From contig JBFKCG010000003.1 in the NCBI GenBank assembly GCA_041620675.1, positions 1-32,435 of the forward strand: a stretch of 32,435 nucleotides of DNA, given 5' to 3'. The translations under genes were made by a program, and so were the position numbers. Below, one piece after another: positions 10,720-32,426 of this stretch. This DNA is from Nevskiales bacterium (lineage in GTDB: Bacteria; Pseudomonadota; Gammaproteobacteria; Nevskiales; DATLYR01). The notes beneath the pieces were generated by a model. That model did not search any database, was not told the DNA's origin, and saw only the letters and a program-made list of their open reading frames with translations. Position 1 is the first letter of the stretch. Every line of letters starts with the position of its first letter.

Positions 10720-11247
10720 TCAGAAGAAGGCGACGTCGTAAGAAATCTCGCCAATGGATTGGTTGAGCAGCTTGCCGAGTGGCGTGATGGGCTCTGATTT
10801 GTAGAAGACCTCCGCGACATACAGGATCAGGCCCTGTGGTGGAATGGGTGAAGGCGTCGATGGCAGGGTGGCCGCGCTGCCGCTGCCCGAGCCGATACGA
10901 CTGGCTGAGGAAACCGTGCCGGATGAGACCTGGTTGCGGATCTTGACCTTGTTGTTCTGGTCGCGAATGACCTCGGTGATGATGATGAAGCCGTTTGCCT
11001 CCATGTCCAGCGGCTCGTCCGAGAGCTGGATGGCAGCAATGGAGTCATTCAACGACGTGCCGCGCGAGGCCAGGTTTGCGGCCTCCCGGCTCAGGTTGAG
11101 CAGGACTTGTCGCGTCAGCACGGCTCGACCGAGCTCTATCACGCCGAAGATAAGAACCAGGAGTATGGGCAGCACGAAGGCGAACTCCACCACGGCGATA
11201 CCGCGGTGATGGCGCGCCCCTCGACTTGTCCTGTCAGTGCGCCTCAT
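10720..11247 (-). CDS. TadE/TadF-like minor pilin
   Basis: RG/IAVVEFAFVLPILLVLIFGVIELG...SREAA signature. Confidence 0.88.
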   Translation of the reverse strand: MRRTDRTSRGARHHRGIAVVEFAFVLPILLVLIFGVIELGRAVLTRQVLLNLSREAANLASRGTSLNDSIAAIQLSDEPLDMEANGFIIITEVIRDQNNKVKIRNQVSSGTVSSASRIGSGSGSAATLPSTPSPIPPQGLILYVAEVFYKSEPITPLGKLLNQSIGEISYDVAFF

Positions 11248-11765
11248 TGGTTCACGGATGGCGGGAATGGCTCGTTCTTGAAACTGGTGCTGACCGTGAA
11301 CTTGTAGGCGCCGTCGTCGAAGAACTGGCTCAGCATCGGCGTGATGGGCTCGAAGCGGTAGCGCAGGGATATGGTCAGGATGTCGCCGGCATTGCCCGCG
11401 CTATTGGGTACTTGCGGGCCAGCAGGCTGGCCGCTGGATACGGAAATGTCAGCCTTGTCGATTTCAATGCCCGTAGCCGCCTGTGCCACCACCGCCTTGA
11501 TTGACTCAATGCGGGACTGTTTGGTCTTCGGATCGTTGGGATCATCAAGGCGCCCACCGGTGACCCCGTAACGGCCACCTTCACGCATGGCATGTTGCAG
11601 CGAGGTTTGGGTAAACATCAGGCGCGCGAAATCAATCACGCCGAACAACAGAAAAAGAAAAACGGGCAGCAGGATAGCCAACTCAACGGTTTCAACGCCG
11701 CGCTGGCGGCACCTGTTCCCGACCTCAGTGTGTCTTTTGAGACAGGTTGTCATTCCATCACGCAT
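11244..11765 (-). CDS. tadE: TadE-like minor pilin
   Basis: QRG/VETVELAILLPVFLFLLFGVIDF...REGGRY signature; 4-nt overlap with the next gene. Confidence 0.88.
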   Translation of the reverse strand: MRDGMTTCLKRHTEVGNRCRQRGVETVELAILLPVFLFLLFGVIDFARLMFTQTSLQHAMREGGRYGVTGGRLDDPNDPKTKQSRIESIKAVVAQAATGIEIDKADISVSSGQPAGPQVPNSAGNAGDILTISLRYRFEPITPMLSQFFDDGAYKFTVSTSFKNEPFPPSVNQ

Positions 11766-11844
11766 ATCTGGCCCGAGTTTTCCTACACACGATCAGTGCT
11801 GTCGAGTGGTTGAATCACACTAGTAGATTTCAGTGAAGTCTGGG

Positions 11845-11858
11845 TTGACTTAGGTCAA
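11845..11858. promoter_or_regulatory. FNR/ANR-family binding site in the divergent tadE/flp intergenic region
   Basis: TTGAC-TTAG-GTCAA; minus-strand -10 TAGTGT at 11822-11817 gives class II (-41.5) geometry. Confidence 0.65.
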
Positions 11859-11965
11859 TGCATCCATGTGCGCTAGGGAGGAACCTTGCGACATGGACAG
11901 GCAACCCTGCCGCCATGCAGCCCTAATCGAAGGGGTTTGCCAGAAATTGTTAAGGAGCCAATGCC

Positions 11966-12133
11966 ATGTCATTTCGAGATAGCGTCAAGCGGTTTATGCA
12001 AGATGAAGAAGGCCTGACGACAGTGGAATACGCCGTCGCCGGTGGCCTGATCGCAGCGGCCGTGATCGCCGCCTTCATCCTGTTGGGAGACAAGGTCAAC
12101 GAAAAGATCGGTGACATCACCGGCAACCTCTGA
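11966..12133 (+). CDS. flp: Flp/Fap type IVc major pilin (55 aa; missing from the ORF track)
   Basis: MSFRDSVKRFMQDEEG/LTTVEYAVAGGLIAAAVIAAFILLGDKVNEKIGDITGNL; Flp motif G-x4-EY; TAAGGAG RBS at 11951. Confidence 0.93.
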   Translation: MSFRDSVKRFMQDEEGLTTVEYAVAGGLIAAAVIAAFILLGDKVNEKIGDITGNL

Positions 12134-12145
12134 CCATGGCTGCAC

Positions 12146-12182
12146 AATGACGGCCCCGGGCAAATTCCTGGGGCTGTCGTTT
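12146..12182 (+). terminator. Stem-loop after flp (partial terminator or mRNA stabiliser)
   Basis: AATGACGGCCCCGGG-CAAAT-TCCTGGGGCTGTCGTT, with G-U pairs. Confidence 0.6.
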
Positions 12183-12218
12183 AGTCGCCAGATCTCCCAT
12201 ATAAAAAGTAAGTAGGGA

Positions 12219-12779
12219 ATGATCATGTTGCCGCACGATTTCCAGACGCTGACCCCCCTGCTGCTAGCGGCGGTGCTTGTTATCGCGGTCTGGCGAGATG
12301 TGACTCGTCACCGAATTGATAACTGGATCAGTGTTCTCGGAATTGGTGTGGCGCTTGGCCTGCAGCTGAATAGCGCAGGGATGGCTGGGCTGGCCCTTAC
12401 CCTTGGCGGCGTAATGGCCGGCCTCGCCATTTTTCTCCCGTTCTATGTCGCCGGTGGCATGGCTGCCGGTGACGTCAAGCTCATGGCCGCCGCCGGTGCC
12501 TTCCTCGGGCCCGTGGATGCCGTGATGGCAGGCCTCGCCAGCCTGATCGCCGGCACCGTGCTGGCGCTGCTGGTGATGGCGATGCATGGCGGCTTGCGCG
12601 AGGGCCTCGGTCATACCGGTCGCCAGGTGCTGGGTTTTGGCATGACGCGTATTTGGGTTCGTGCAAGTCCAGATTCAATCGCTGCTCGCCGGTTTCCTTA
12701 CGCTGGCGCAATTGCGGTTGGTTGCCTCTCGATATCAACCCTGCGGCTGTCCGGTGTGCTGCCAGGCGTCGTCCAGTAA
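12219..12779 (+). CDS. cpaA: Prepilin peptidase, A24 family (CpaA/TadV)
   Basis: Multi-TM; D...RI.N and GGMAAGDVKL catalytic Asp motifs; FPYA..I near the C-terminus. Confidence 0.92.
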   Translation: MIMLPHDFQTLTPLLLAAVLVIAVWRDVTRHRIDNWISVLGIGVALGLQLNSAGMAGLALTLGGVMAGLAIFLPFYVAGGMAAGDVKLMAAAGAFLGPVDAVMAGLASLIAGTVLALLVMAMHGGLREGLGHTGRQVLGFGMTRIWVRASPDSIAARRFPYAGAIAVGCLSISTLRLSGVLPGVVQ

Positions 12780-12797
12780 AGGTGCAGGAGATTACAC

Positions 12798-13583
12798 ATG
12801 ACCAACCGCCGCAATATCCTCATTTTCCTGATGCTCGCCGCCATTCTCGGCTTGGGGTCGGCCTTTCTGGCGCAGCGTTGGACTGAAGGTCGTATGGATG
12901 AGGCCAGGCAGCAGGCCAGCAGCAAGCTCACCAAGGTCGTGGTTGCCAAGGGCGAAATCACCTTTGGCAAGCGAATTGATCAGAGCACCATCAAGACGGT
13001 CGATTGGCCCAAGGATGCCGTGCCTCCGGGCGCGTTTCACATGATGGAGGACGTGGTTGGTCGCCAGTCCAAGTACCACATCCTCCCGGGTGAACCGATC
13101 CTCGAGCCACGCGTGGCGGATCCCAACAAGAGCCCATTACTGGCGGGCCTGATTGAGCCCAACAAGCGAGCCGTCACCGTACGCGTCGATGACGTGGTCG
13201 GCGTCGCGGGCTTCCTGTTGCCGGGTAGTCACGTTGATGTGCTGGCCTCGCGTCGCCTGGATTCTGATCGTTACGACACTCGCACGGTGCTGCATAACCT
13301 GAAGGTATTGGCGGTAGACCAGACCGCCTCGACCGGCAGCGAGGATAAGCCCGTGGTAGTGAGGGCGGTAACGTTGGAAGCAGACCTCAAACAGGCGGAA
13401 GTACTGGTGCAGGCCACCAGCGAGGGCAGCGTCCAGCTGGCCCTGCGCAACCCGGAAGATGATGCCGTGCCTGTCGTCGCCGAGGCGCCGGCACCCGTGC
13501 GGACGGCACCGCGCAGGACGAGCAGCAACCAAGTCACCGTCATTCGTGGCACCCATTCCAATTCTGCTGAAACCCGGCAGTGA
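12798..13583 (+). CDS. cpaB: Flp pilus assembly protein CpaB/RcpC
   Basis: N-terminal TM, SAF-like region (VVVAK..I), RAVTVRVDDVVGVAGFLLPG..VDVL, LALRNP. Confidence 0.93.
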   Translation: MTNRRNILIFLMLAAILGLGSAFLAQRWTEGRMDEARQQASSKLTKVVVAKGEITFGKRIDQSTIKTVDWPKDAVPPGAFHMMEDVVGRQSKYHILPGEPILEPRVADPNKSPLLAGLIEPNKRAVTVRVDDVVGVAGFLLPGSHVDVLASRRLDSDRYDTRTVLHNLKVLAVDQTASTGSEDKPVVVRAVTLEADLKQAEVLVQATSEGSVQLALRNPEDDAVPVVAEAPAPVRTAPRRTSSNQVTVIRGTHSNSAETRQ

Positions 13584-13609
13584 GCGCAGTCATGGACAAG
13601 GAGCAAGTT

Positions 13610-15202
13610 ATGAAAGCTCGCATTCGAACCCGGTCTTCAGCCAGCACAGGTCGCCTGATCCTTGCCATGGGACTTCTGTTCTTGCTGGTGGCTGCTTTGT
13701 TGGCCACCAACGCAAGTTCGGCAGGAGATGGCAATAACCTGACGGTACCGTTGTACAAATCAACCACGGTGCGACTGCCGCAGCCAGCCAAGCGGGTTTC
13801 GGTCGGCAATCCTGGTGTAGCCGACATCGTGATCCTGCATAGCCAGGAATTACAGATCGTTGGCAAGTCACTGGGCGCTACCAACCTAGTGGTGTGGGAC
13901 AAGAACAGCCGGGTGCAAGCGTCCTACAACATTGAAGTTGTGCATGACCTGGTCACGCTGCAGGACAAGCTGCATGCCTTATTGCCAGGTGAATCCATCA
14001 GAACGACCTCAGCCCAGGAAAACATCGTGCTGAGCGGCGAGGTCAAGAACGCCAGCCAGATGCAGGCAGCCGTCGCGCTGGCAGAAAGCTTCATACCGGA
14101 ATGCATCGAGGCCGTAACGCAGGGTGATGGCGGCAAAGGTGCGGTAACCGCGTTGCCTGGCGTGGGCAAGGGCCGTGACTGTGACAAGGGCAAGGTGGTG
14201 AACCTGATGCAGGTCGGTGGTGCGCAACAGGTCATGCTGGAAATAAAGGTCGCGGAGATGGCGCGCACGGTGCTCAAGACCATGGATGCTGATGTCAACA
14301 TCTACAACCTCGGCAAGCGCGGTGGCTTCGGCGCCGTCGAGGGCGGTGCCAACTTCCCCAATTCCGGCGGACCTGTCCTGGCCGGTCCGGGTGGGCCCAT
14401 CGGCCCAAATGTAGACCTGTTCGACCCGGTCGCACCCGCGATCGACAACAGCGGGATATTTTTCAGCTATCTCAAGGGTGACCTGTTCCTGCAGGCAGTG
14501 CTTGAGATTTCACGGCGCAAGGGCTTGGCGAAGATCCTGTCGGAGCCGACGCTGACTACGCTCAATGGCCAGGAAGCAGAGTTCCTGTCCGGTGGTGAGT
14601 TCCCCATCCCGGTGCCGCAGGGCACGGGCAACAGCATCACGATCGAGTTCAAGGAATTTGGCGTTGGCGTCAAGTTCATCCCGGTCGTGCTGGACTCGGG
14701 TCGCATCAATCTCAAGCTTAATGTTGCCGTCAGTGAGCTCTCCCAAGACAACAATGTGCAGCTAGCGGCTGCCGGTACCGCCAGCGCCTTCGTCATTCCT
14801 TCGCTGACCAAGCGCAGCGCCAAGAGCACGGTGGAATTGGCCAACGGACAAACGATCGGCATCGCCGGCTTGATCAGCGACAACACACGCGAGTTCGTCG
14901 ACAAGCTGCCGGGCCTGGGTGATATCCCGGGCCTGGGCGCGCTGTTCCGGAGCCAGGAATTCCGCTCAGGGCAGACCGAGCTGGTGATCTTTGTCACGCC
15001 ACACCTGGCGCGGCCGATCAGCCAGGCCAAGATCTCGCTGCCCACGGACAGCTTCGTGCCCCCCAGTGATCGTGATTTCTACCTGATGGGTCGCATGGAG
15101 GCAAAGGATGCCAAGGACGGCAAGGCGGCACCGCGCCGAGTAGCCAGGCCCGAGAGTTCTAAGGGCGGCATCGAAGGCGCCAGCATCGGCCATGACCTCT
15201 AG
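13610..15202 (+). CDS. cpaC: Tad secretin CpaC/RcpA
   Basis: VGNPGVAD, QVMLEIKVAE, ILSEP.L...NGQEA.FLSGGEFPIP and LPGLGDIPGLGALFRS..TELVIFVTP; AAGGAG RBS before ATG 13610. Confidence 0.94.
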   Translation: MKARIRTRSSASTGRLILAMGLLFLLVAALLATNASSAGDGNNLTVPLYKSTTVRLPQPAKRVSVGNPGVADIVILHSQELQIVGKSLGATNLVVWDKNSRVQASYNIEVVHDLVTLQDKLHALLPGESIRTTSAQENIVLSGEVKNASQMQAAVALAESFIPECIEAVTQGDGGKGAVTALPGVGKGRDCDKGKVVNLMQVGGAQQVMLEIKVAEMARTVLKTMDADVNIYNLGKRGGFGAVEGGANFPNSGGPVLAGPGGPIGPNVDLFDPVAPAIDNSGIFFSYLKGDLFLQAVLEISRRKGLAKILSEPTLTTLNGQEAEFLSGGEFPIPVPQGTGNSITIEFKEFGVGVKFIPVVLDSGRINLKLNVAVSELSQDNNVQLAAAGTASAFVIPSLTKRSAKSTVELANGQTIGIAGLISDNTREFVDKLPGLGDIPGLGALFRSQEFRSGQTELVIFVTPHLARPISQAKISLPTDSFVPPSDRDFYLMGRMEAKDAKDGKAAPRRVARPESSKGGIEGASIGHDL

Positions 15203-15212
15203 GAGATGTGAC

Positions 15213-15506
15213 ATGAAGCAGACAACAAGCGTAAACGCACTGGGGTTCGTGGCTGCCATGCTGCTGGCCGGTTGTGCCATGACCGCCTCTACCGATCCGA
15301 CCCGGGTTGAGAATGACTTCGGGAACTCGGTCAGGCAGATGGTGGATGGACAAATCTATGACACCAAGGCGGCACGCAAGCCCGCGACCGAACCGCCCTT
15401 GGGCCAGGATGGTGCACATACCGAGGTCATCCTAAGAAAACACCGTGAGCATGTCGGCGATCCCGCTTCTGTGGACGATGACGTGCGCGTGGGCGTAACC
15501 CAATGA
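15213..15506 (+). CDS. Small lipoprotein in the tad operon (secretin-associated candidate)
   Basis: AGGAG RBS; lipobox LLAGC; lies between cpaC and cpaE. Confidence 0.75.
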   Translation: MKQTTSVNALGFVAAMLLAGCAMTASTDPTRVENDFGNSVRQMVDGQIYDTKAARKPATEPPLGQDGAHTEVILRKHREHVGDPASVDDDVRVGVTQ

Positions 15507-15536
15507 CCGTGGGTACGCATTGTCAGGAGAGTCCAC

Positions 15537-16742
15537 ATGCATGAAAGGCACATAATCTGGATTGACGCGGCGACAGCCGAAGGTTGCACTCGGCTGACGG
15601 AGGCGCTTCAACACCAGAAGGACCTCGACATCCACTCCCGAGTGAGGAAGCCGGGGCCGCTGACATCCCCGTCATTCACCCCTTCAAGCCCGCGCATGGT
15701 CCTGCTGGAGCTGGGGGAACATGGGTCGCAGTTGCTCAGGGACTGGACGGAGCTGGCGGAGACCGCAGGCATCCCGCTCATCGTGGTAGGCCCCCCCCAC
15801 GACAGCCAGTTGATGCGCCGCGCGATGCAGGCTGGTGCGCGCGATTATTTCTCCGAGCCATTGCCCGTGGATGAGCTGGTGTCCTCCGTGCGGCAGATTG
15901 TGGCTGAAGCAGATGAGGCCGCGCTGGTGCGGCCGGGCGGAAAACTGACGTCGGTCATTGATGCCAAGGGTGGCTCGGGCGCGTCCTTTGTCGCCTGCAA
16001 CCTGGCCCATATGCTGACAGCGCACCTTGACCGAAAGACCGCGCTGATTGACATGGATCTGCAGTTCGGTGCCCTGCCGCTGGCGCTGGACATGAGCCCG
16101 AAATCAACGCTGTTTGACGTCATCGGGGCAGCCGATGGCCTTGATGCAGTGGCGCTTCGTGCCTACATGGCCGAGCACAGCAGTGGCTTGCATGTGCTTG
16201 GCACAATGGGCGAGCAGCTGGTCATGCCCTGGGAGGTGTCGGTAGAGGCGGCACAGAAGGTGCTGCGAGTTGCGCTGCAGAGTTATGCGCACGTGGTGAC
16301 CGATCTGCCGCGCTCAATCGACCCGATCACCAGCATGGTGCTCAGCGCATCGGATTTGATCATGGTCGTGATGCAAAGAAGTTTTGCGCACCTGCGGGAT
16401 GCACAACGCATGTTCAGCCTCATGCGAGGCTATCTGGGTATCCCCTCGGAACGCATCATCCTGGTCGTCAATCGCAACGAGGGCAAGAGCCCCATCACCA
16501 TTGATGATATCAACCAGGCCATACGGCCTTCCTTCATCGCGCAGATTCCAAACGACTTCGAGCATGTGACGGAGTCAATGAACCTCGGCGTGCCGTTGTA
16601 CAAGAGCGTGCGCACCGCACCGGTGACCAAGGCCTTGTGCAAGCTCGCCGAGCGGGTTGACGGTGTGATTGAAACGACGCCCGAGCAGGAAGAGCCCGCC
16701 CATGCTGGCGGCATCGCACGCCTCCTGGGCATGAATAAGTAA
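15537..16742 (+). CDS. cpaE: CpaE/TadZ (receiver-like domain plus MinD-type ATPase)
   Basis: AMQAGARDY receiver-like motif; deviant Walker A KGGSGAS; LIDMDLQFG. Confidence 0.92.
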
Positions 16743-18121
16743 TGGAGATGAAACTGGGTACCGGTACCCGGGGGGCGGACGCCAAGTCTGGCGCCTCGGG
16801 AGCATCAGGCAATCCAGCAGGAAATGCCATGAGTCGTACGATCAGTGGCACTGCTCAAGACCAGGATTGGGTGAAGATCGTACACCACGACTTGCTGGAG
16901 CAACTGGACCTCGCCCGCCTGGGCTCCTTGGATGAGCAGGCCGCGCGCCAGGAAATTCGAGACCAGGCCCAGCGCATCATGCAGGAGCACTCCGTTCCGC
17001 TGTCGGCGATGGCGCGCCAGCAACTGGCCAAGAGTGTCGAGGATGAAATCCTGGGCCTGGGTCCACTTGAGCCATTACTCAATGATCCGGACGTCTCTGA
17101 CATTCTCGTCAACGGGTACAACAAGGTTTTCGTGGAGCGACACGGCAAGCTTGAGTCAACCAACGTGCGGTTTCGTGACGAGGCGCACCTGATGATGATC
17201 ATTGATCGGATCGTAACCCGCGTGGGCCGTCGCATCGATGAATCATCGCCGATGGTGGACGCGCGCCTGGAAGATGGCTCGCGCGTCAATGCCGTCATCC
17301 GTCCACTGGCGCTGGATGGCGCGATGCTGTCCATCCGCCGTTTTCGCGTTGACAGCATGAGCGCGGAGGATTTCACCCGATTGGGTAGCTGGACGCCGGC
17401 CATCGGTGAGGTGCTCAAGGGCGTGGTGAGTGGACGCCTGAACGTGCTCATCTCCGGTGGTACCGGCACTGGCAAGACCACGCTGCTGAATGTGCTGTCT
17501 GGCTTCATCCCGCCTGACGAACGCATCATCACGATCGAGGATTCTGCTGAGCTTTGCCTGCGACAGCCTCATGTGGGTAGGCTGGAGACCCGTCCGGAAA
17601 ACATTGAGGGCAGGGGTGAAGTGACCCAGCGCGACCTGGTACGCAATGCCCTGCGCATGCGGCCGGACCGGATCATCGTCGGCGAGGTGCGCGCGGGCGA
17701 GGCTTTCGACATGCTGCAGGCCATGAATACCGGCCATGACGGCTCCCTGACCACAGTCCATGCCAACACCCCACGTGATGCCCTGTCTCGCATCGAGAAC
17801 ATGGTGGCCATGACGGGTATTGAGTTGCCCCCGCGTGCCGTGCGCAGCCAGATAGCCTCCGCCATCGACGTGGTGATCCAGTTAGAGCGCATGGAAGATG
17901 GCGTGCGCCGCCTGGTGAGCCTGCAGGAAATCCAGGGCTCAGAGGGGGACGTGATCATCATGGCCGAGATCTTTCGCTTTGAGCGCACAGGTCTCAGCAA
18001 GGACGGCAAGGTACTGGGCAAGTTTCGCGCCACGGGTCTGGTGCCGCATTTTCATGCGCCCTTGCATCGCCGTGGCATCGAACTCGATCTCCACCTGTTC
18101 GATATGGACAGGGAAGTTTAG
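16742..18121 (+). CDS. cpaF: Tad motor ATPase CpaF/TadA
   Basis: [30 protein letters not shown] and [14 protein letters not shown]. Confidence 0.96.
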
Positions 18122-18130
18122 GAGTTGGTT

Positions 18131-19093
18131 ATGGATCTCATGGTATGGCTCATCCCAGGATTTGTTTTCATCGCGGTCTTTGCGATCGTCTTGATGTTTG
18201 TGGTGCCATTCACCAACGACGACAAGAAGCGGATGCGCGAGCGCATGGCCAAGATCAACCATGGCGTGATGCCCGAGGCAGCGCACTCCCTGCTGCGGGA
18301 CCAGTACCTGCGCCAACTCTCCCCGCTGGAGCTGTGGCTGGAGGATTTGCCGGGCATGCGCAAGATCGAGCTCTTGTGTGAACAGACCGGCCGCCATATC
18401 CCCGCCTATCGTGTGGTACTGCTGGCACTCGCACTGGCGTCGGCTGCCGGCTTACTGCTGCTAGCCTTTGGGCGTCCGTGGTTTGCACTGCTAGTCTTTA
18501 TCCTGGTTCTGCCGCTGCCTTACCTCAAGCTGAAGAAGGATGCAGAGGCGCGGTTACTGCAATTTGAGCAGCAACTGCCGGACGCGCTTGATGTCATCAG
18601 CCGGGCCCTACGCGCAGGTAATCCCTTCGTTGAGACCCTGCGCGTGGTTGCCGAGGAAATGGATGATCCCATCGCCACAGAATTTGGCATCACGTTTTCC
18701 GACCTGAATTACGGCGTCAGCATCCGGTCCGGCTTTATGGCACTGCTTGAGCGGATACCCAACGTCGGTCTGGCGGCAATGGTAACGGCAGTACTGGTGC
18801 AACGGGAAACTGGTGGCAACATGGCCGAGATCCTTGACCGCATTGCTAGCGTATTGCGCCAGCGCATGCGTTTCCAGAGACGCCTGAAGACCCTGACGGC
18901 CGAAGGGCGCATGTCAGCCACGATACTTGTGCTGATGCCCTTCGTGCTGGCGCTGGTGCTTGCCTTCATTGCGCCGGATTACCTGCCCATGCTGTTGGAT
19001 AGCCCCATCGGCATCCAGCTAATCGGCTTGGCCCTGCTCATCATGGGGTTTGGAATCTGGTGGATTCGCCGAATCATCCGGGTGCAATTCTAG
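18131..19093 (+). CDS. tadB: Tad platform protein TadB
   Basis: T2SSF-like QLPDALD...LRAG, QRETGGN and TAEGRMS. Confidence 0.92.
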   Translation: MDLMVWLIPGFVFIAVFAIVLMFVVPFTNDDKKRMRERMAKINHGVMPEAAHSLLRDQYLRQLSPLELWLEDLPGMRKIELLCEQTGRHIPAYRVVLLALALASAAGLLLLAFGRPWFALLVFILVLPLPYLKLKKDAEARLLQFEQQLPDALDVISRALRAGNPFVETLRVVAEEMDDPIATEFGITFSDLNYGVSIRSGFMALLERIPNVGLAAMVTAVLVQRETGGNMAEILDRIASVLRQRMRFQRRLKTLTAEGRMSATILVLMPFVLALVLAFIAPDYLPMLLDSPIGIQLIGLALLIMGFGIWWIRRIIRVQF

Positions 19094-19102
19094 GAATGGC
19101 CC

Positions 19103-20044
19103 ATGAATAGCCTGACCACACTTGCGGAAAGCCCCTTCTTCGTCCAGCTGCTGGCCGGTGCGATCGGGGTCGCTGTCATGCTGGCAGCATTCCTCTTCCT
19201 CAGCATCGCGGGTGAGCGTGCGCATCCATTGCGGCGGCGACTCAACCGCCTGGGCACTGTCGATCTGCAGACCTCGGAAGTGACCGAGCCCGGCATGGGC
19301 AGTACCTTGCGTCCATTCGGAACTTATCTTTTGCCCAAGCATGAGAAAGAGCGCGAGACCCTCAAGCTCAAGTTGATACGCGCAGGCTTCCGATCAAAGA
19401 CTGCCGCCATCAATCTCTACATCGCCAAGATCGTGCTGGCGATCGTTCTGCCCATCGCGGTCTTGGCCCTGCTGGTTTCGACCACGGAGCTTGACGCCGC
19501 CTTTCTTGTGCTGATCGCGAGCGCGGTTTCCATGACGGGCCTTTTCCTGCCGAATTACCTACTGGATATCCGCATACAAAAGCGGCACCGGGAAATGTTG
19601 TATGCGTTGCCTGATGCGCTGGACCTCCTGGTGGCCTGTACCGAGGCGGGCTTGGGATTGAATGCGGCCTTGCAGCGGGTGGCCCGGCAGATGGACATCA
19701 GCAGCCCGCTGCTGGCCAGGGAGCTGGAACAGGTCAATGCGGAAATGCGTGGCGGCATGGACCGCATAGCCGCGCTCAGGAACCTGACTCATCGCACCGG
19801 CCTGGAGGAGATCCGTGGCCTGGTGTCGCTGCTGTCACAAAGTGTGCGCTTTGGTAGTGCCATTGCGGACATCCTGCGCATATATGCCGAGGAGTTTCGC
19901 GATAAGCGTTCGCAGGCAGCCGAAGAGCAGGCTGCCCTCGTCGGCACCAAGCTGATCTTCCCCTTGTGCTTTTGTATCTTCCCGTCGTTCTTCATTGTGG
20001 CAGTGGGGCCTGCGGTGGTGGCACTGGTCAAGGCACTGGCGTGA
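19103..20044 (+). CDS. tadC: Tad platform protein TadC
   Basis: LPDALDLLVAC.EAGLGL, AEEQA...KLIFPL..CIFP and GPA. Confidence 0.92.
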   Translation: MNSLTTLAESPFFVQLLAGAIGVAVMLAAFLFLSIAGERAHPLRRRLNRLGTVDLQTSEVTEPGMGSTLRPFGTYLLPKHEKERETLKLKLIRAGFRSKTAAINLYIAKIVLAIVLPIAVLALLVSTTELDAAFLVLIASAVSMTGLFLPNYLLDIRIQKRHREMLYALPDALDLLVACTEAGLGLNAALQRVARQMDISSPLLARELEQVNAEMRGGMDRIAALRNLTHRTGLEEIRGLVSLLSQSVRFGSAIADILRIYAEEFRDKRSQAAEEQAALVGTKLIFPLCFCIFPSFFIVAVGPAVVALVKALA

Positions 20045-20085
20045 AGGCTTGCTGGATGGTTTATAGGGATTCGGGAGACTTCGAC

Positions 20086-20982
20086 ATGAAGAAGAAATCA
20101 CGGATGGGATCAATCAATGTGCTGTTGCGGCCGCTCGTGGGCGTGCTGGTGTTGTTCCTGGCCAGCTGCACGGCGATGCCAACGAAGCACAATGTCCAGG
20201 GGTCCGAGCCCAATGAAGCGCAGCAGGCACTGCAGCGCGGGGACAGTGCATTCCAGGCGGGAGATTCCGGCAAGGCACTCATGGAATATGTCAGTGCCCT
20301 GCAGGCTGATCCGAAGAATATCGAAATACATTACCGGATCGGTGCGACTTACGAGGCCCGCGGAGAAAACCAGGCGGCACGGCAGGCCTTTCAGGACGCT
20401 CTCAAGATCAATCCGGCTCATGTCGGCGCACAAGAAGGCCTCGGCCTAGCCTTGATGAAGCTGCACCAGAAGAAAGAAGCGAAGACGCATCTGCAGCGTG
20501 CGCTGGCTGCCGATCCAAAACGCTGGCGCACACTCAACGGACTGGGGGTCGTGGCCGACCTGGAACGTAACCCCGAAGCAGCGTTCGGCTATTACCAGGC
20601 TGCGCTCAAGATCAAGCCGAATCACCCGATGTTGCTGAATAACCTGGGCTATTCGCGCTATCTGGCGGGCGACTATCCGGCTGCGCGTTCCTACTTCGAG
20701 CGTGTTCTGGCGCAAGACGCAGATAATCGTCGCGCCTGGGCCAACCTGGCGCTGGTCCAGGTCAGGCAGGGCAACAACGATGCCGGGGTGGCAGCCTTCG
20801 CCGAGGTGCTTGAACCGTATCAGGCCAATAATAATGTGGGCTACCTGCTCTATAAGCAGGGCAAGTTGAATGAGGCACGGCATTACTTGCAACGTGCCGT
20901 CAGCCTGTCGCCCACCTATTACGCGATGGCCAAGGAAAACCTGGCGCGCGTTGACGCGGCATCAAATTCCAAACCTCGGTAA
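20086..20982 (+). CDS. tadD: TadD-like TPR lipoprotein
   Basis: Lipobox LASC; multiple TPRs (LNNLGYS, NNVGY); last gene of the tad operon. Confidence 0.85.
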   Translation: MKKKSRMGSINVLLRPLVGVLVLFLASCTAMPTKHNVQGSEPNEAQQALQRGDSAFQAGDSGKALMEYVSALQADPKNIEIHYRIGATYEARGENQAARQAFQDALKINPAHVGAQEGLGLALMKLHQKKEAKTHLQRALAADPKRWRTLNGLGVVADLERNPEAAFGYYQAALKIKPNHPMLLNNLGYSRYLAGDYPAARSYFERVLAQDADNRRAWANLALVQVRQGNNDAGVAAFAEVLEPYQANNNVGYLLYKQGKLNEARHYLQRAVSLSPTYYAMAKENLARVDAASNSKPR

Positions 20983-21149: not shown

Positions 21150-21620
21150 ATGCCACGCAATATCACGCTTCGCAGTTCTGCCATCCACGGCAAAGGCATT
21201 TTTGCCGCCCGTGACATCCCCGCCGGCACCGAGATCATCGAATATCGTGGACGTGTCATTACGCACCGGCAGGCGGATCAATGGTATGGCGTGTATGAAG
21301 GCGAGGATGATGGCCATACCTTCTTGCTGACCTTGAATGACAAGTTCATCCTGGACGCGAACGTGGATGGCAACTGGGCGCGTTGGATTAACCACAGCTG
21401 CGATCCCAATTGTGAATTGCTGCTGTGGGAGCACGAGTCCGGTGACCCGCGCCGAGAACGCGTGCTCATCAGCGCGATCCGGCGTATCCGCAAGGGCGAG
21501 GAGCTGACCTACAACTACGGGATTGAGGCGCACGAGCCCGTCACGCCGGCCATGCGCGAAGTGTGGGCCTGTCGCTGCGGTGCCGTCGGTTGCCAGGGGA
21601 CGATGCTCAAGGCGGGATAG
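21150..21620 (+). CDS. SET-domain protein-lysine methyltransferase with post-SET Zn motif
   Basis: SAIHGKGIFA, EYRG, RWINHSCDPN, GEELTYNY and CRCGAVGC. Confidence 0.95.
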   Translation: MPRNITLRSSAIHGKGIFAARDIPAGTEIIEYRGRVITHRQADQWYGVYEGEDDGHTFLLTLNDKFILDANVDGNWARWINHSCDPNCELLLWEHESGDPRRERVLISAIRRIRKGEELTYNYGIEAHEPVTPAMREVWACRCGAVGCQGTMLKAG

Positions 21621-29008: not shown

Positions 29009-29338
29009 ATGGCAACGAAGAAAGCAGCAAGAAAAAAAGCAGCACCCAGTCAGACACGTGCGGTCAAGGCAGCATGGGCAAAAGTCAGGCAGTCATTGAC
29101 ACGCGCCGAGAAGGCGATGGTTGATGTTGTCAATGCCAATCGCGCCCTGATGAAGGCTCTGGGCAATGCAGGCGTCTCCATGACCCATAGTGCGCGCAAG
29201 GACATGGATGCGCGCATTCGCAAGCTGGACGTCAGCAAAAAAAGCGCACGCAAGCACCTGGACCAGCTGACCAAGCGCCTGGTGGCGATGGCCAAGAAGG
29301 CACAGGCCAAGGTCAAGCCCAAGGCCAAGCGCCGCTAG
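29009..29338 (+). CDS. Lys/Ala/Arg-rich basic protein (histone H1-like termini, helical core)
   Basis: AAGGAGAGG RBS; 20 K and 12 R versus 6 D/E in 109 aa; MATKKAARKKAAP...AKKAQAKVKPKAKRR; followed by a terminator. Confidence 0.8.
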   Translation: MATKKAARKKAAPSQTRAVKAAWAKVRQSLTRAEKAMVDVVNANRALMKALGNAGVSMTHSARKDMDARIRKLDVSKKSARKHLDQLTKRLVAMAKKAQAKVKPKAKRR

Positions 29339-29357: not shown

Positions 29358-29381
29358 AAGGCGGCCACTGGCCGCCTTTTT
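29358..29381 (+). terminator. Intrinsic terminator
   Basis: AAGGCGGCC-ACT-GGCCGCC-TTTTT. Confidence 0.85.
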
Positions 29382-29423: not shown

Positions 29424-30098
29424 ATGACACCGAAGTTTGATTCCATCTATCAACGCGCCGTGGCACGCAAGGGGGGTGAAGCGGCGTTGCGAAAGCTGTT
29501 CCCGAAGCTGCGAAGTGCTGCCCAGCTCAGGCGCATCCCGGATGATCGCTGGCTGGCCGAAATCACCCGACGCGTGTTCTGTGCCGGTTTCGTCTGGAAG
29601 ATCATCGAGCACAAGTGGCCTCATTTCGAGAAGGCCTTCAAGGGCTTCAGTCCACATGCGGTTGCACATATGTCAGACGAGGTACTGGAGCGCCTGGCCG
29701 CAGACCCTCGCATCGTGCGTAATTATCAGCGCATCAAAAGCGTGCGCGAAAACGCCTTGTTTGTGCTCGAGATCGCAGAGGCGCATGGCAGTTTCGGCCG
29801 ATTCATCGCAGACTGGCCCGGTGATGACATTGTTGGCCTGTGCGCGCTGCTGAAAAAGCGCGGGAGTCGACTGGGCGGCATCAGTGGGCAATATCTCCTG
29901 CGCTTCATGGGCAAGGACACGTTCTTGCTGACACCGGACGTGATCACCTGCCTGAACAATCATGGCGTGTTGACAAGCACGTCGCCGACTTCCAAGCGTG
30001 ACCTTGCAACCATCCAGCGCACATTCAATGCCTGGCATGAGCAGACTGGCTTGCCACTCTCAGCCTTGAGTCGCATCGCGTCATGCGCGGTTGACTAA
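29424..30098 (+). CDS. DNA-3-methyladenine glycosylase I family protein
   Basis: DDRWL......FCAGF.W..I..KWP.F..AF.GF and RIVRN...I..V..NA motifs of the Tag family. Confidence 0.82.
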   Translation: MTPKFDSIYQRAVARKGGEAALRKLFPKLRSAAQLRRIPDDRWLAEITRRVFCAGFVWKIIEHKWPHFEKAFKGFSPHAVAHMSDEVLERLAADPRIVRNYQRIKSVRENALFVLEIAEAHGSFGRFIADWPGDDIVGLCALLKKRGSRLGGISGQYLLRFMGKDTFLLTPDVITCLNNHGVLTSTSPTSKRDLATIQRTFNAWHEQTGLPLSALSRIASCAVD

Positions 30099-30134
30099 GG
30101 CTAGGATCGTGCCTGGCGGGTTGCGCGCATGCTC

Positions 30135-30163
30135 TTCCATCCGCGGTGATTTGGTGACATGAT
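30135..30163 (+). promoter_or_regulatory. Putative sigma70 promoter for the Lys-rich micro-ORF
   Basis: TTCCAT-17 nt-CATGAT with extended -10 TG at 30155-30156. Confidence 0.4.
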
Positions 30164-30238
30164 CAAGACGGCAGAACTGAGAGGAGGAGGGTTTTCTCGG
30201 TGAATGCCACTTTGTTCCACCACATAGGAGGAGCTACC

Positions 30239-30280
30239 ATGGCTGCCAAGAAGAAAGCCGCTAAGAAAAAGAAAAAGTAA
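30239..30280 (+). CDS. 13-aa Lys-rich micro-protein MAAKKKAAKKKKK
   Basis: TAGGAGGAG RBS 5 nt before ATG; clean ORF to TAA; terminator begins 20 nt downstream. Confidence 0.65.
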   Translation: MAAKKKAAKKKKK

Positions 30281-30300
30281 AGAAGTACCCGTGAGGGTCG

Positions 30301-30333
30301 CGGGCGCGGAGAGGAAACTCCCGCGCCCGTTTT
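30301..30333 (+). terminator. Intrinsic terminator after the micro-ORF
   Basis: CGGGCGCGG-A-GAG-GAAA-CTC-CCGCGCCCG-TTTT. Confidence 0.85.
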
Positions 30334-30477
30334 CGTTTCTGCCCCTCCTGCTTCGTTTGCACGTTAACCACATCACTCGCTCCGGCACCTGACTGCGTGC
30401 ATTGCGTCAGGCCTGGGAACGCGAGCAACAGGACTCACGGGGCGAGTGAACCCCAATGGGTGGTTGCGCGGCTGATA

Positions 30478-30506
30478 TTGACAGCCCGATTGTGGCATTC
30501 AAAACT
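30478..30506 (+). promoter_or_regulatory. Putative sigma70 promoter of the acyl-CoA synthetase
   Basis: TTGACA-17 nt-AAAACT. Confidence 0.45.
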
Positions 30507-30596: not shown

Positions 30597-32426
30597 ATGA
30601 CTGATACACACCTCACCGACCAGATCCGGCTGCGCGACATTCTGCGTGGCCTAGTCCAAAGCCTGCCGGAAACCGTGACGGTGAATAAGGGTTTATGGAA
30701 CTTGGCGACCGCCAAGCCCGAGAAGAAGCTGTCCATTGGGCTGGTGCTGGAAAAGCACGCCCGGAACATACCTGACCAGATTGCGCTCAAATTCGGGGAC
30801 AGCCAGTGGACCTATGCTGAATTCAATGCCTGGGTGAACCGGATCGCTGAACAGTTCCGGCGTGATGGCGTCGGCATGGGTGATGTGGTCGGCATCCTTT
30901 CGGAAAACCGCCCTGGGGTGATGGCCTGCGTGGCCGCGGCAGTAAAGCTCGGTGCGATCGCCGGCATGCTCAATCACAACCAGCGTGGCGAGGTGCTCGC
31001 GCATAGCATCAAGCTCATCAGCCCCAAGGTCATGGTGGTCGGTTGCGAGAGCATCGAGGCCCTGGCCAGCACCCCGTATACACCGGGAACGCAAGGCATG
31101 CGCCACTACGCCATGGGAGACGCGGGTGTTGAAGGCAAGGCTCCAGAGGGTTATGTCGATCTCGATCGAGCCACCCTCGACCTCAGCAGCGAGAACCCCG
31201 AGAGCACGGCGCAGGTGCAGCTGAAGCATCCCTGCTTTTATATCTTCACGTCCGGCACCACCGGGCTGCCCAAGGCCTCGATCATGACGCACTACCGCTG
31301 GATTCGCAGCATGGCAGGCGTGGGACAAATGGCGCTGCGACTGAAACGCTCGGATGTGATCTACCTGCCGCTGCCGCTGTATCACAACAATGCGCTAACG
31401 GTGACCTGGAGTGCGGCAATGAGCGCGGGCTGCTGCGTGGCGCTGACGCGCAAGTTCAGCGCCACGCGCTTCTGGGACGAGGTGCGGCATTACGAGGCCA
31501 CGGCTTTCTGCTACATCGGCGAGCTGTGCCGTTATTTGCTCAACCAGCCAGCTTCGGCTGAGGATCGCCACCATCGCGTGCGCACGATCGTGGGCAATGG
31601 CTTGCGCCCCGAGATCTGGGATGCCTTCGAGAAGCGTTTCGGCATCGAGAACATCAACGAATTCTACGGCGCCAGTGAATGCAACGTGGCCTTCATCAAC
31701 GCGCTGGGTGCGAAGCGCTCGGCCGGCTTCTGCCCACTCAGCTTTGCGGTGGTCGAATATGACACCGAGAACGACCAGCCCATCCGCAATGCCGAGGGTT
31801 TCCTGAGCAAGGTGCCCAAGGGTGGCGTTGGCCTGCTCATCAGCGAGGTCACCGAAAAGACCCCTTACGATGGTTATACCGATGCAAAGGCCAGCGAGAA
31901 GAAGCTCCTGCACGACGTCTTCAAGAAGGGCGATTGCTGGTTCAACAGTGGCGACCTGGTACGCGACCAGGGTATGCGCCATATCCAGTTTGTGGATCGT
32001 GTGGGCGACACCTTCCGCTGGAAGGGCGAGAACGTCGCCACCACCGAGGTTGAGGCGGCACTGACGACCTTCCCGCAGATTGAACAAGCGGTGGTGTATG
32101 GCGTGGAAGTGCCCAACAGCGATGGGCGTGCGGGCATGGCGGCACTGACGCTCAAATCCAGCGTGAACCAACTGGATGGCGCGGGGCTGGCCAAGCACCT
32201 GCAGGCAAGCTTGCCCGCGTATGCGATCCCGATGTTCCTGCGCCTGCGCGAGTCGCAGGAAACCACCGGCACCTTCAAGTACCGCAAGGTTGAGTTGAAG
32301 CAGGAGGCCTTCGACCCGGCCAAGGTCAGCGAGCCGCTCTACGCCTTGCTGGATCGTGACAAGGGTTACGAGCGCCTCACGGCCGAAGGCTTCAAGAGGA
32401 TCCAGAACAGCGAAATCCGCTTCTAG
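30597..32426 (+). CDS. FATP/FadD6-type long-chain acyl-CoA synthetase
   Basis: YIFTSGTTGLPK, LPLYH, YIGELCRYL, EFYGASE and SGDL...DRVGDTFRWKGENVAT.EVE; likely start ATG 30597. Confidence 0.93.
   Translation: MTDTHLTDQIRLRDILRGLVQSLPETVTVNKGLWNLATAKPEKKLSIGLVLEKHARNIPDQIALKFGDSQWTYAEFNAWVNRIAEQFRRDGVGMGDVVGILSENRPGVMACVAAAVKLGAIAGMLNHNQRGEVLAHSIKLISPKVMVVGCESIEALASTPYTPGTQGMRHYAMGDAGVEGKAPEGYVDLDRATLDLSSENPESTAQVQLKHPCFYIFTSGTTGLPKASIMTHYRWIRSMAGVGQMALRLKRSDVIYLPLPLYHNNALTVTWSAAMSAGCCVALTRKFSATRFWDEVRHYEATAFCYIGELCRYLLNQPASAEDRHHRVRTIVGNGLRPEIWDAFEKRFGIENINEFYGASECNVAFINALGAKRSAGFCPLSFAVVEYDTENDQPIRNAEGFLSKVPKGGVGLLISEVTEKTPYDGYTDAKASEKKLLHDVFKKGDCWFNSGDLVRDQGMRHIQFVDRVGDTFRWKGENVATTEVEAALTTFPQIEQAVVYGVEVPNSDGRAGMAALTLKSSVNQLDGAGLAKHLQASLPAYAIPMFLRLRESQETTGTFKYRKVELKQEAFDPAKVSEPLYALLDRDKGYERLTAEGFKRIQNSEIRF

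Follow-up and report, generated by a model that had tools for sequence, protein, structure and literature searches.

The mini-gene and its surroundings

The window analyzed here is the whole stretch of 32,435 nt from contig JBFKCG010000003.1 of a Nevskiales bacterium. We detected a self-contained mini-gene cassette at window positions 30132-30339 of the forward strand, composed of a promoter region, a folded 5' leader, a Shine-Dalgarno (SD) site, a 13-codon open reading frame (ORF), and an intrinsic terminator. Three relatives that carry the same unit are referred to below as G001 (same genus), L410 (a metagenome contig), and G005 (another family, with different neighbors). The features of the window are as follows.

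10720-20982: Tad/Flp-type pilus cluster (TadE-like proteins, prepilin peptidase, RcpC/CpaB, secretin, ATPases, two T2SSF, TPR protein)
21150-21620 (+): SET-domain protein (PF00856, 95.9 bits)
29009-29338 (+): 109-residue protein with Lys/Ala-rich ends, with its own strong terminator at 29358-29378
29424-30098: methyladenine-glycosylase gene (PF03352), the upstream neighbor of the mini-gene
30132-30141 (+): conserved upstream box CTCTTCCATC, overlapping a weak -35 position (TTCCAT, 30135-30140)
30155-30163 (+): extended -10 element TG-n-CATGAT
30170-30208 (+): predicted 5' leader hairpin with outer stem GGCA/TGCC
30177-30185 and 30192-30200 (+): inner stem of the leader, CTGAGAGGA with TTTTCTCGG, around the loop GGAGGG (30186-30191)
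30225-30233 (+): SD site TAGGAGGAG, 7 nt before the ATG
30239-30280 (+): 13-codon ORF and stop codon, product MAAKKKAAKKKKK (8 Lys, 4 Ala, 1 Met)
30287-30298 (+): predicted small 3' hairpin ACCC-GTGA-GGGT, just past the stop codon
30300-30339 (+): intrinsic terminator, a 13-pair stem with one bulge (30300-30330) and a GAAA loop, with the T tract TTTTCGTTTC reaching 30339
30466-30506: sigma-70-type promoter of the acyl-CoA-synthetase-like gene (TTGACA, 17 nt, AAAACT), conserved in G001 (AAAACT or AACACT)
near 30597 (+): start of the AMP-binding, acyl-CoA-synthetase-like gene, the downstream neighbor of the mini-gene on the same strand

The upstream box has at most two changes in G001, L410, and G005, and is probably a -35 element or a regulator site. 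The box and the sequence TGACAT-N-AT of the extended -10 element are common to all four lineage members, the -10 hexamer having a single variable position among them (G, C, or T), and transcription probably starts near 30170. The SD site forms a duplex of -10.2 kcal/mol with a generic anti-SD, within the strongest 2.2% among 1846 long ORFs of the genome. The ORF mixes AAG with AAA and GCT with GCC codons. The fold of the 181-nt unit was calculated as -67.9 kcal/mol, versus -51.5 +/- 4.2 for shuffled sequences (z = -3.9, 0/200 shuffles as good). Compared with the consensus, the weak points are the bulge in the terminator stem and the poor -35 match; in a simple scan for consensus sequences, the promoter and the terminator of the mini-gene both went unflagged. 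The Rfam search (E <= 10) produced no match for the unit in the window, nor for eight sister loci.

The elements listed in a preliminary description of the locus (extended -10, hairpin with the GGAGGG loop, SD, mixed synonymous codons, and GAAA-capped terminator) were all located in the sequence. Its proposal of a self-contained transcription unit was supported; the same architecture recurs in G001, L410, and G005, and the cassette retains its own promoter and terminator amid changed surroundings. Two further suggestions fared worse. The mini-gene and the 29009 gene had been described as bracketing the DNA glycosylase, and we found that the upstream neighbor of the mini-gene in G001 is an acyltransferase gene. 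A connection to the SET-domain protein had also been suggested; SET is present in 124/187 genomes of the order and in only 4/6 of the mini-gene carriers, and this link was dropped. The SET-domain protein is a lineage trait unassociated with the mini-gene.

Several other features of the genome were noted. The SET-domain protein is present in 123/129 genomes of one family of the order and absent from G001 and G005. For the 109-residue protein at 29009-29338 no Pfam or NCBIfam model scored above threshold, and the arrangement of its gene beside the glycosylase and the mini-gene is not retained in G001. The same genome encodes a second oligolysine mini-gene of 23 codons with 13 Lys (contig C139:4867-4938, forward strand, identical to locus L263:1468-1539), which has the SD GAGGAGGG and is located 52 nt past a 467-residue ORF with a Cys-rich C-terminal tail; its 23-residue product had no match in Pfam and NCBIfam searches.

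Orthologues and distribution in the order

A DNA search of 61 genomes detected the unit in four, the genome of the window included, and a scan of metagenome contigs anchored on the leader contributed a further orthologue, L410, together with a chance match, L411. The peptides of G001 and L410 are identical to that of the window, each ORF carrying one synonymous change in a different codon. The product of G005, whose contig is locus L015 of the stop-free pattern scan described below, is a variant of 13 residues; its ORF shows an in-frame rearrangement and two synonymous Ala changes, and stops with TAG versus TAA. The search for synonymous variation in related genomes that the preliminary description had proposed thus returned only synonymous or in-frame changes.

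The RNA structures are conserved as well. The inner stem of the leader is identical in the window, G001, and L410, with a loop length that differs by zero to two A, and the small 3' hairpin keeps its stem with a variable loop in these three and in G005. The terminators of G001, G005, and L410 keep the outer 9-10 pairs unaltered; their inner part is changed yet still paired. In the window, G001, and G005 a CCUCC-like element upstream is in each case able to pair with the SD. A general switch by SD sequestration was considered and rejected, the pairing probability over 173 units being 0.595 versus 0.551 with a shuffled upstream leader, which is no general signal.

Within the order of the window the ORF pattern was found in 6/187 genomes, representing 3/32 genera, and the reversed control pattern in 0/187. 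With this patchy distribution the mini-gene is dispensable or replaceable there. DNA similarity to the mini-gene additionally led to a 60-residue Lys/Ala/Val-rich protein in G009 (L004:1520-1702), in a different genomic context; it scored only E = 0.25 against the Hc2 profile PF07382.

Coding selection in samples chosen by flanking sequence

Because a scan by pattern biases the ORFs it returns, two samples defined by their flanks were analyzed. For the first sample the DNA of a 211-nt sister unit, reaching from its promoter to its terminator, served as the query against the Acidobacteriota family to which it belongs, and matches were found in 88/101 genomes. The best 30 of these matches all contain an intact ORF of 13-16 codons (30/30). 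In the 28 unique ORFs of these best 30 loci the variable sites at codon positions 1, 2, and 3 amount to 2/11, 0/11, and 9/11, respectively. The ORF lengths are 42, 45, 48, or 51 nt, every length change being a multiple of three. The 25 nt past the stop codon are near random in the sister loci, with a minor-base fraction of 0.52. The sister-unit alignment also revealed an A/T-rich tract, a TTGACA -35 element, a 17-nt spacer, and a TATACA -10 element, followed by two hairpins in the leader, in which compensatory changes occur, and by a terminator that hardly varies.

The second sample was obtained by a scan anchored on the leader just upstream of the ATG, which yielded at least 120 loci. A stop codon is reached within the available DNA in 118 of the 120 loci listed, and in 117 of these 118 the ORF is Lys-rich and 12-22 codons long, with an apparent read-through extension in one case; in a single listed locus of the 118 the ORF is seemingly disrupted.

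The preliminary description had made its case depend on conservation of frame and composition, and both were found: the ORF is intact in 30/30 and in 117/118 of the listed loci, with the 2/0/9 periodicity. Third-position variation, in-frame length changes, and the conserved start and stop codons identify a protein-coding gene. Judged by these alignments, which demonstrate conservation, the cassette anatomy, and protein-level selection, the locus is a real gene, and a chance ORF is practically ruled out.

The wider family

In a collection of 185,579 species genomes the stop-free pattern M-A-A-K3-A-(A)-K5 gave 91 matches in 89 loci. The ORF has 12-15 codons in 86/91 and 21-34 codons in three, and extends past the available DNA in two. 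A stop codon follows zero or one codon after the pattern in 84/91, where chance would give roughly one in ten; the stops are TAA in 65 and TAG in 24 matches, and never TGA. A looser pattern including the stop gave at least 119 loci, and 103 of the 119 listed encode 11-16 residues, mostly the Acidobacteriota form M-A-T-K3-A-K4/5-H. Two of the three collection scans were selected on the Lys codon pattern, so the ORF similarity in them is partly by construction. An SD-like site was found in 188/196 family units, and a terminator-like hairpin with a T run downstream in 153/196. In L043 (Acidobacteriota label) and L049 (Rokubacteria label) the 13-codon gene is present twice in tandem, the copies being about 180 and 100 nt apart, respectively, and every copy has an SD to itself.

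By depositor labels the carriers belong to Acidobacteriota, Verrucomicrobiota, Planctomycetota, Binatia, Nitrospirota, Methylomirabilota/Rokubacteria, Chloroflexota, Elusimicrobiota, Spirochaetia, the Alpha-, Beta-, Gamma-, and 'Delta'-proteobacteria, Patescibacteria, and Nano-, Woese-, and Pacearchaeota. These labels are not all reliable, since a metagenome-assembled genome labelled Verrucomicrobiia (L007/L039/L139) has a sequence identical to G079 of the order of the window. All carriers among the matches listed in the three collection scans are metagenome-assembled or single-cell genomes. The viral collection contained just one matching locus, which indicates that the gene is not phage-borne. 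Sequencing runs with the locus comprised four DNA runs of one marine-metagenome study and one soil run with a small share; no RNA run was among them.

The neighboring genes were reviewed at 32 sampled loci. Their products include a DNA glycosylase, an AddA-type helicase-nuclease, RmuC, RecG, RsmB/F, MiaA, a hibernation factor, glycyl-tRNA synthetase, OsmC, thiolase, hydantoinase, MerR, and transporters. Across lineages, these 32 loci revealed no recurrent neighbor and no shared function. The mini-gene is a member of a large unannotated class of 12-16-codon 'K3-A-K4/5' genes, ranging from Acidobacteriota to Patescibacteria and DPANN-labelled archaea, within which the low complexity of the peptide sequence makes homology across phyla inseparable from convergence. 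No published description of an oligolysine mini-gene family was found by full-text searches of the literature.

Composition and codon choice

The number of lysines, usually eight, is better conserved than the peptide length: among the leader-anchored loci listed, eight lysines were counted in 94/117 loci and in 22/38 distinct peptides, with lengths of 13-17 residues. The window peptide also has eight. The length varies through AA, GG, or SS insertions in the middle of the peptide. The residues of the family are K, A, T, G, S, and P, and H at the end; R and E occur once each among the 38 distinct peptides, and large hydrophobic residues are essentially absent, as is D.

The codon choice is non-random in the lysine runs. 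The mean longest A run is 5.43, versus 6.37 +/- 0.14 when AAA and AAG are shuffled within the ORFs (0/1000 shuffles as low), and AAG makes up about half of the Lys codons even where the flanks have 20-30% GC, with the qualification that the family sequences are related and that these codon and charge statistics overstate independence. Such avoidance of A runs fits selection for faithful frame transcription and translation.

Proposed function

We consider it rather probable that the locus is an autonomous monocistronic gene whose product is a diffusible octalysine polycation that would act on nucleic acid. The promoter with the extended -10 element would drive a transcript of about 170 nt, composed of a folded leader of about 70 nt, a very strong ribosome binding site, the 13 codons, the small hairpin, and the intrinsic terminator. 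Translation in vivo would produce the 13-mer, and removal of Met before Ala would presumably leave a 12-residue peptide with eight lysines. This 12-mer would be a free-diffusing polycation with a fixed valence of about +8, neutralizing and bridging phosphate backbones. The potential target is DNA, as with histone-H1-type lysine/alanine tails and the chlamydial Hc2 pentamers, or rRNA and ribosomes, as with tiny basic ribosomal proteins.

The composition and the conserved valence are the reasons for taking the product as a phosphate-backbone-binding polycation. The K/A/T/S/P make-up without arginine, as in H1-type tails and Hc2 pentamers, favors DNA over a specific rRNA pocket. The promoter and the SD look like signals of high expression. 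A point against the proposal is that a 12-mer in free form should be subject to rapid degradation unless it is bound. The preliminary description had proposed a free H1-tail-like or polyamine-like polycation that would bind DNA, ribosomes, or polyphosphate. As regards charge and composition this stood, the conservation of eight lysines fitting it and the family composition being as in histone-H1-type tails; in vivo translation, Met removal, the binding partner, and the physiological role are what we infer beyond that.

AlgP-type and HupB-tail repeats are bacterial histone-H1-like, lysine/alanine-rich nucleoid proteins. The window peptide shares with H1-like proteins a K/A-rich repeat composition without acidic or aromatic residues, and the composition of its family resembles that of the Hc2/HctB type (PF07382): K and A prevail, T, S, P, and G are used to some extent, and there is no arginine bias. 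The H1-like nucleoid proteins are likewise built of short lysine-rich units with presumed electrostatic DNA binding; chlamydial Hc2 is described as varying by the numbers of lysine-rich pentamers (PMC2848022). The difference is in size and organization: the H1-like proteins have 60-240 residues and many repeats, whereas the mini-gene peptide has 13 residues, about two units, and is encoded by a free-standing gene.

Polyamines (spermidine and spermine) are comparable in being small, diffusible, multivalent cations able to neutralize nucleic-acid phosphates. Unlike them, the peptide would be encoded by a gene and produced on ribosomes, and its valence would be about +8 versus +3 or +4. Homologues of spermidine synthase and AdoMet decarboxylase are encoded in the genome, so the peptide is no stand-in for missing polyamine synthesis.

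Alternative readings

A dedicated ribosome component would place the peptide in a specific rRNA pocket, as a tiny ribosomal or hibernation protein like bS22, bL37, bTHX, or eL41. The strongest points for this role are the conserved peptide ends, with the N-terminal M-A-[T/A/P]-K3-A tightly conserved and the C-terminal K-K-H likewise in Acidobacteriota, and the near-universality of the gene in one Acidobacteriota family (88/101 genomes). The promoter and SD also resemble those of highly expressed genes, and single loci adjoin genes for a hibernation factor, the RsmB/F rRNA methyltransferase, MiaA, or an aminoacyl-tRNA synthetase. However, there is no consistent neighbor across lineages and none of the 32 sampled loci is in a ribosomal-protein operon. 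The tolerated AA, GG, or SS insertions are a poor fit to a fixed pocket, arginine is essentially absent (one R in 38 distinct peptides), and the 23-residue paralogue lacks an NCBIfam or Pfam match. The known ribosomal microproteins bS22, bL37, bTHX, and eL41 have 24-33 residues and a fixed length, and are arginine-rich with some hydrophobic or aromatic residues. The mini-gene peptides share with them a tiny size, strong basicity, a tendency to escape annotation, and probable high expression, but differ in having 12-16 residues, lysine only without arginine or aromatics, insertions in the middle, and no ribosomal context. We regard the ribosomal role as rather unlikely.

It is less likely still that the transcript is mainly a small regulatory RNA, binding CsrA/RsmA via GGA motifs or Hfq via A-R-N repeats, with an ORF that is incidental or part of a dual function. 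Three GGA motifs are in or beside hairpin loops (leader loop, SD, and terminator loop), the leaders are structured and conserved, and the run of Lys codons doubles as a run of A-R-N triplets. The csrA gene is present in the genome of the window, so CsrA may control the GGA-rich leader in this lineage, and the transcript may have a regulatory role besides coding. Against a mainly RNA-level function, the 2/0/9 codon periodicity, lengths in multiples of three, TAA/TAG switches, and the conserved Lys count are protein-level signatures, the same ORF is found behind unrelated leaders, including those of Patescibacteria- and DPANN-labelled lineages, and no Rfam match was obtained for the window or the eight sister loci.

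The preliminary description had also raised a Lys-sensing leader peptide, which as an attenuator would control the downstream acyl-CoA-synthetase-like gene. The arrangement is superficially that of the leaders hisL, pheL, and trpL, which have 14-16 codons with a run of one amino acid and are followed by a terminator: the mini-gene is of similar length, is rich in a single amino acid, ends at a terminator, and precedes a gene on the same strand. The downstream gene, however, starts about 260 nt past the mini-gene terminator, and is served by a separate promoter that G001 also conserves. Of 41 relatives, 40 have an orthologue of the downstream gene, and the mini-gene adjoins it in only 2/25 fetched loci, both of the genus of the window. 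The downstream gene is different or on the opposite strand in G005, where the unit is upstream of an AI-2E-family transporter gene, and in other lineages. No alternative antiterminator fold was predicted, and the downstream enzyme is unconnected with lysine. Unlike the amino acid leaders, the mini-gene has no regulated downstream operon or antiterminator, and it has its own promoter, variable contexts, and a peptide under selection. The neighbors that vary by lineage and the conserved promoter of the downstream gene identify the mini-gene as something other than a leader peptide, and we abandoned this alternative as very improbable.

Two observations on the same interval are added here. Compared with G001, the window has about 110 extra bases between the mini-gene terminator and the downstream promoter. 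The origin of the mini-gene from a longer gene at the same spot was considered and rejected: in 23/25 fetched orthologous loci, those outside the genus of the window, no lysine-rich ORF was detected near the acyl-CoA-synthetase-like gene, and the K/A-rich protein of G009 is located elsewhere.

The reading that survives least, a functionless chance intergenic ORF or decaying remnant of a longer lysine-rich gene, could draw on the longer Lys/Ala-rich proteins of relatives (60 residues in G009) and on the few pattern matches that run to 21-34 residues or more, but it is practically untenable given the ORF intact in both flank-chosen samples (30/30 and 117/118 listed loci) and the reversed-pattern control at 0/187 genomes.

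Significance

Large small-ORF surveys are described as starting at 15 codons. The mini-gene is far below annotation cut-offs, yet it ranks with the intergenic features that are most clearly under selection. It is near-universal in one soil Acidobacteriota family, its cassette logic recurs in distant phyla, and it provides a searchable signature for annotation: a strong SD, M-A-x-K3-A-K4/5, a stop codon, and a terminator. The cassette may also be regarded, from its sequence signals, as a compact natural high-expression unit. Lysine-rich basic proteins are known as a kind; here such a protein is reduced to a single free-standing 13-codon gene.

A broader and more tentative suggestion is one that we regard as possible but on the doubtful side: gene-encoded octalysine could be an overlooked component, ancient or repeatedly invented, maintained at a constant valence of about eight positive charges in more than 10 bacterial phyla and DPANN-labelled archaea, and serving as a dedicated counter-ion of nucleic acid. 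If this is true, the peptide would act either on the nucleoid, as a minimal 'histone tail without a histone', or on the ribosome, as the smallest of the proteins bound there, and few known protein-coding genes that stand alone would be as small as its gene. Should the peptide be made, the cells hold a ribosomally synthesized polycation of defined charge alongside polyamines and nucleoid proteins, which would matter for nucleoid compaction, for the stability of ribosomes and RNA, and for the question of how small a functional gene can be.
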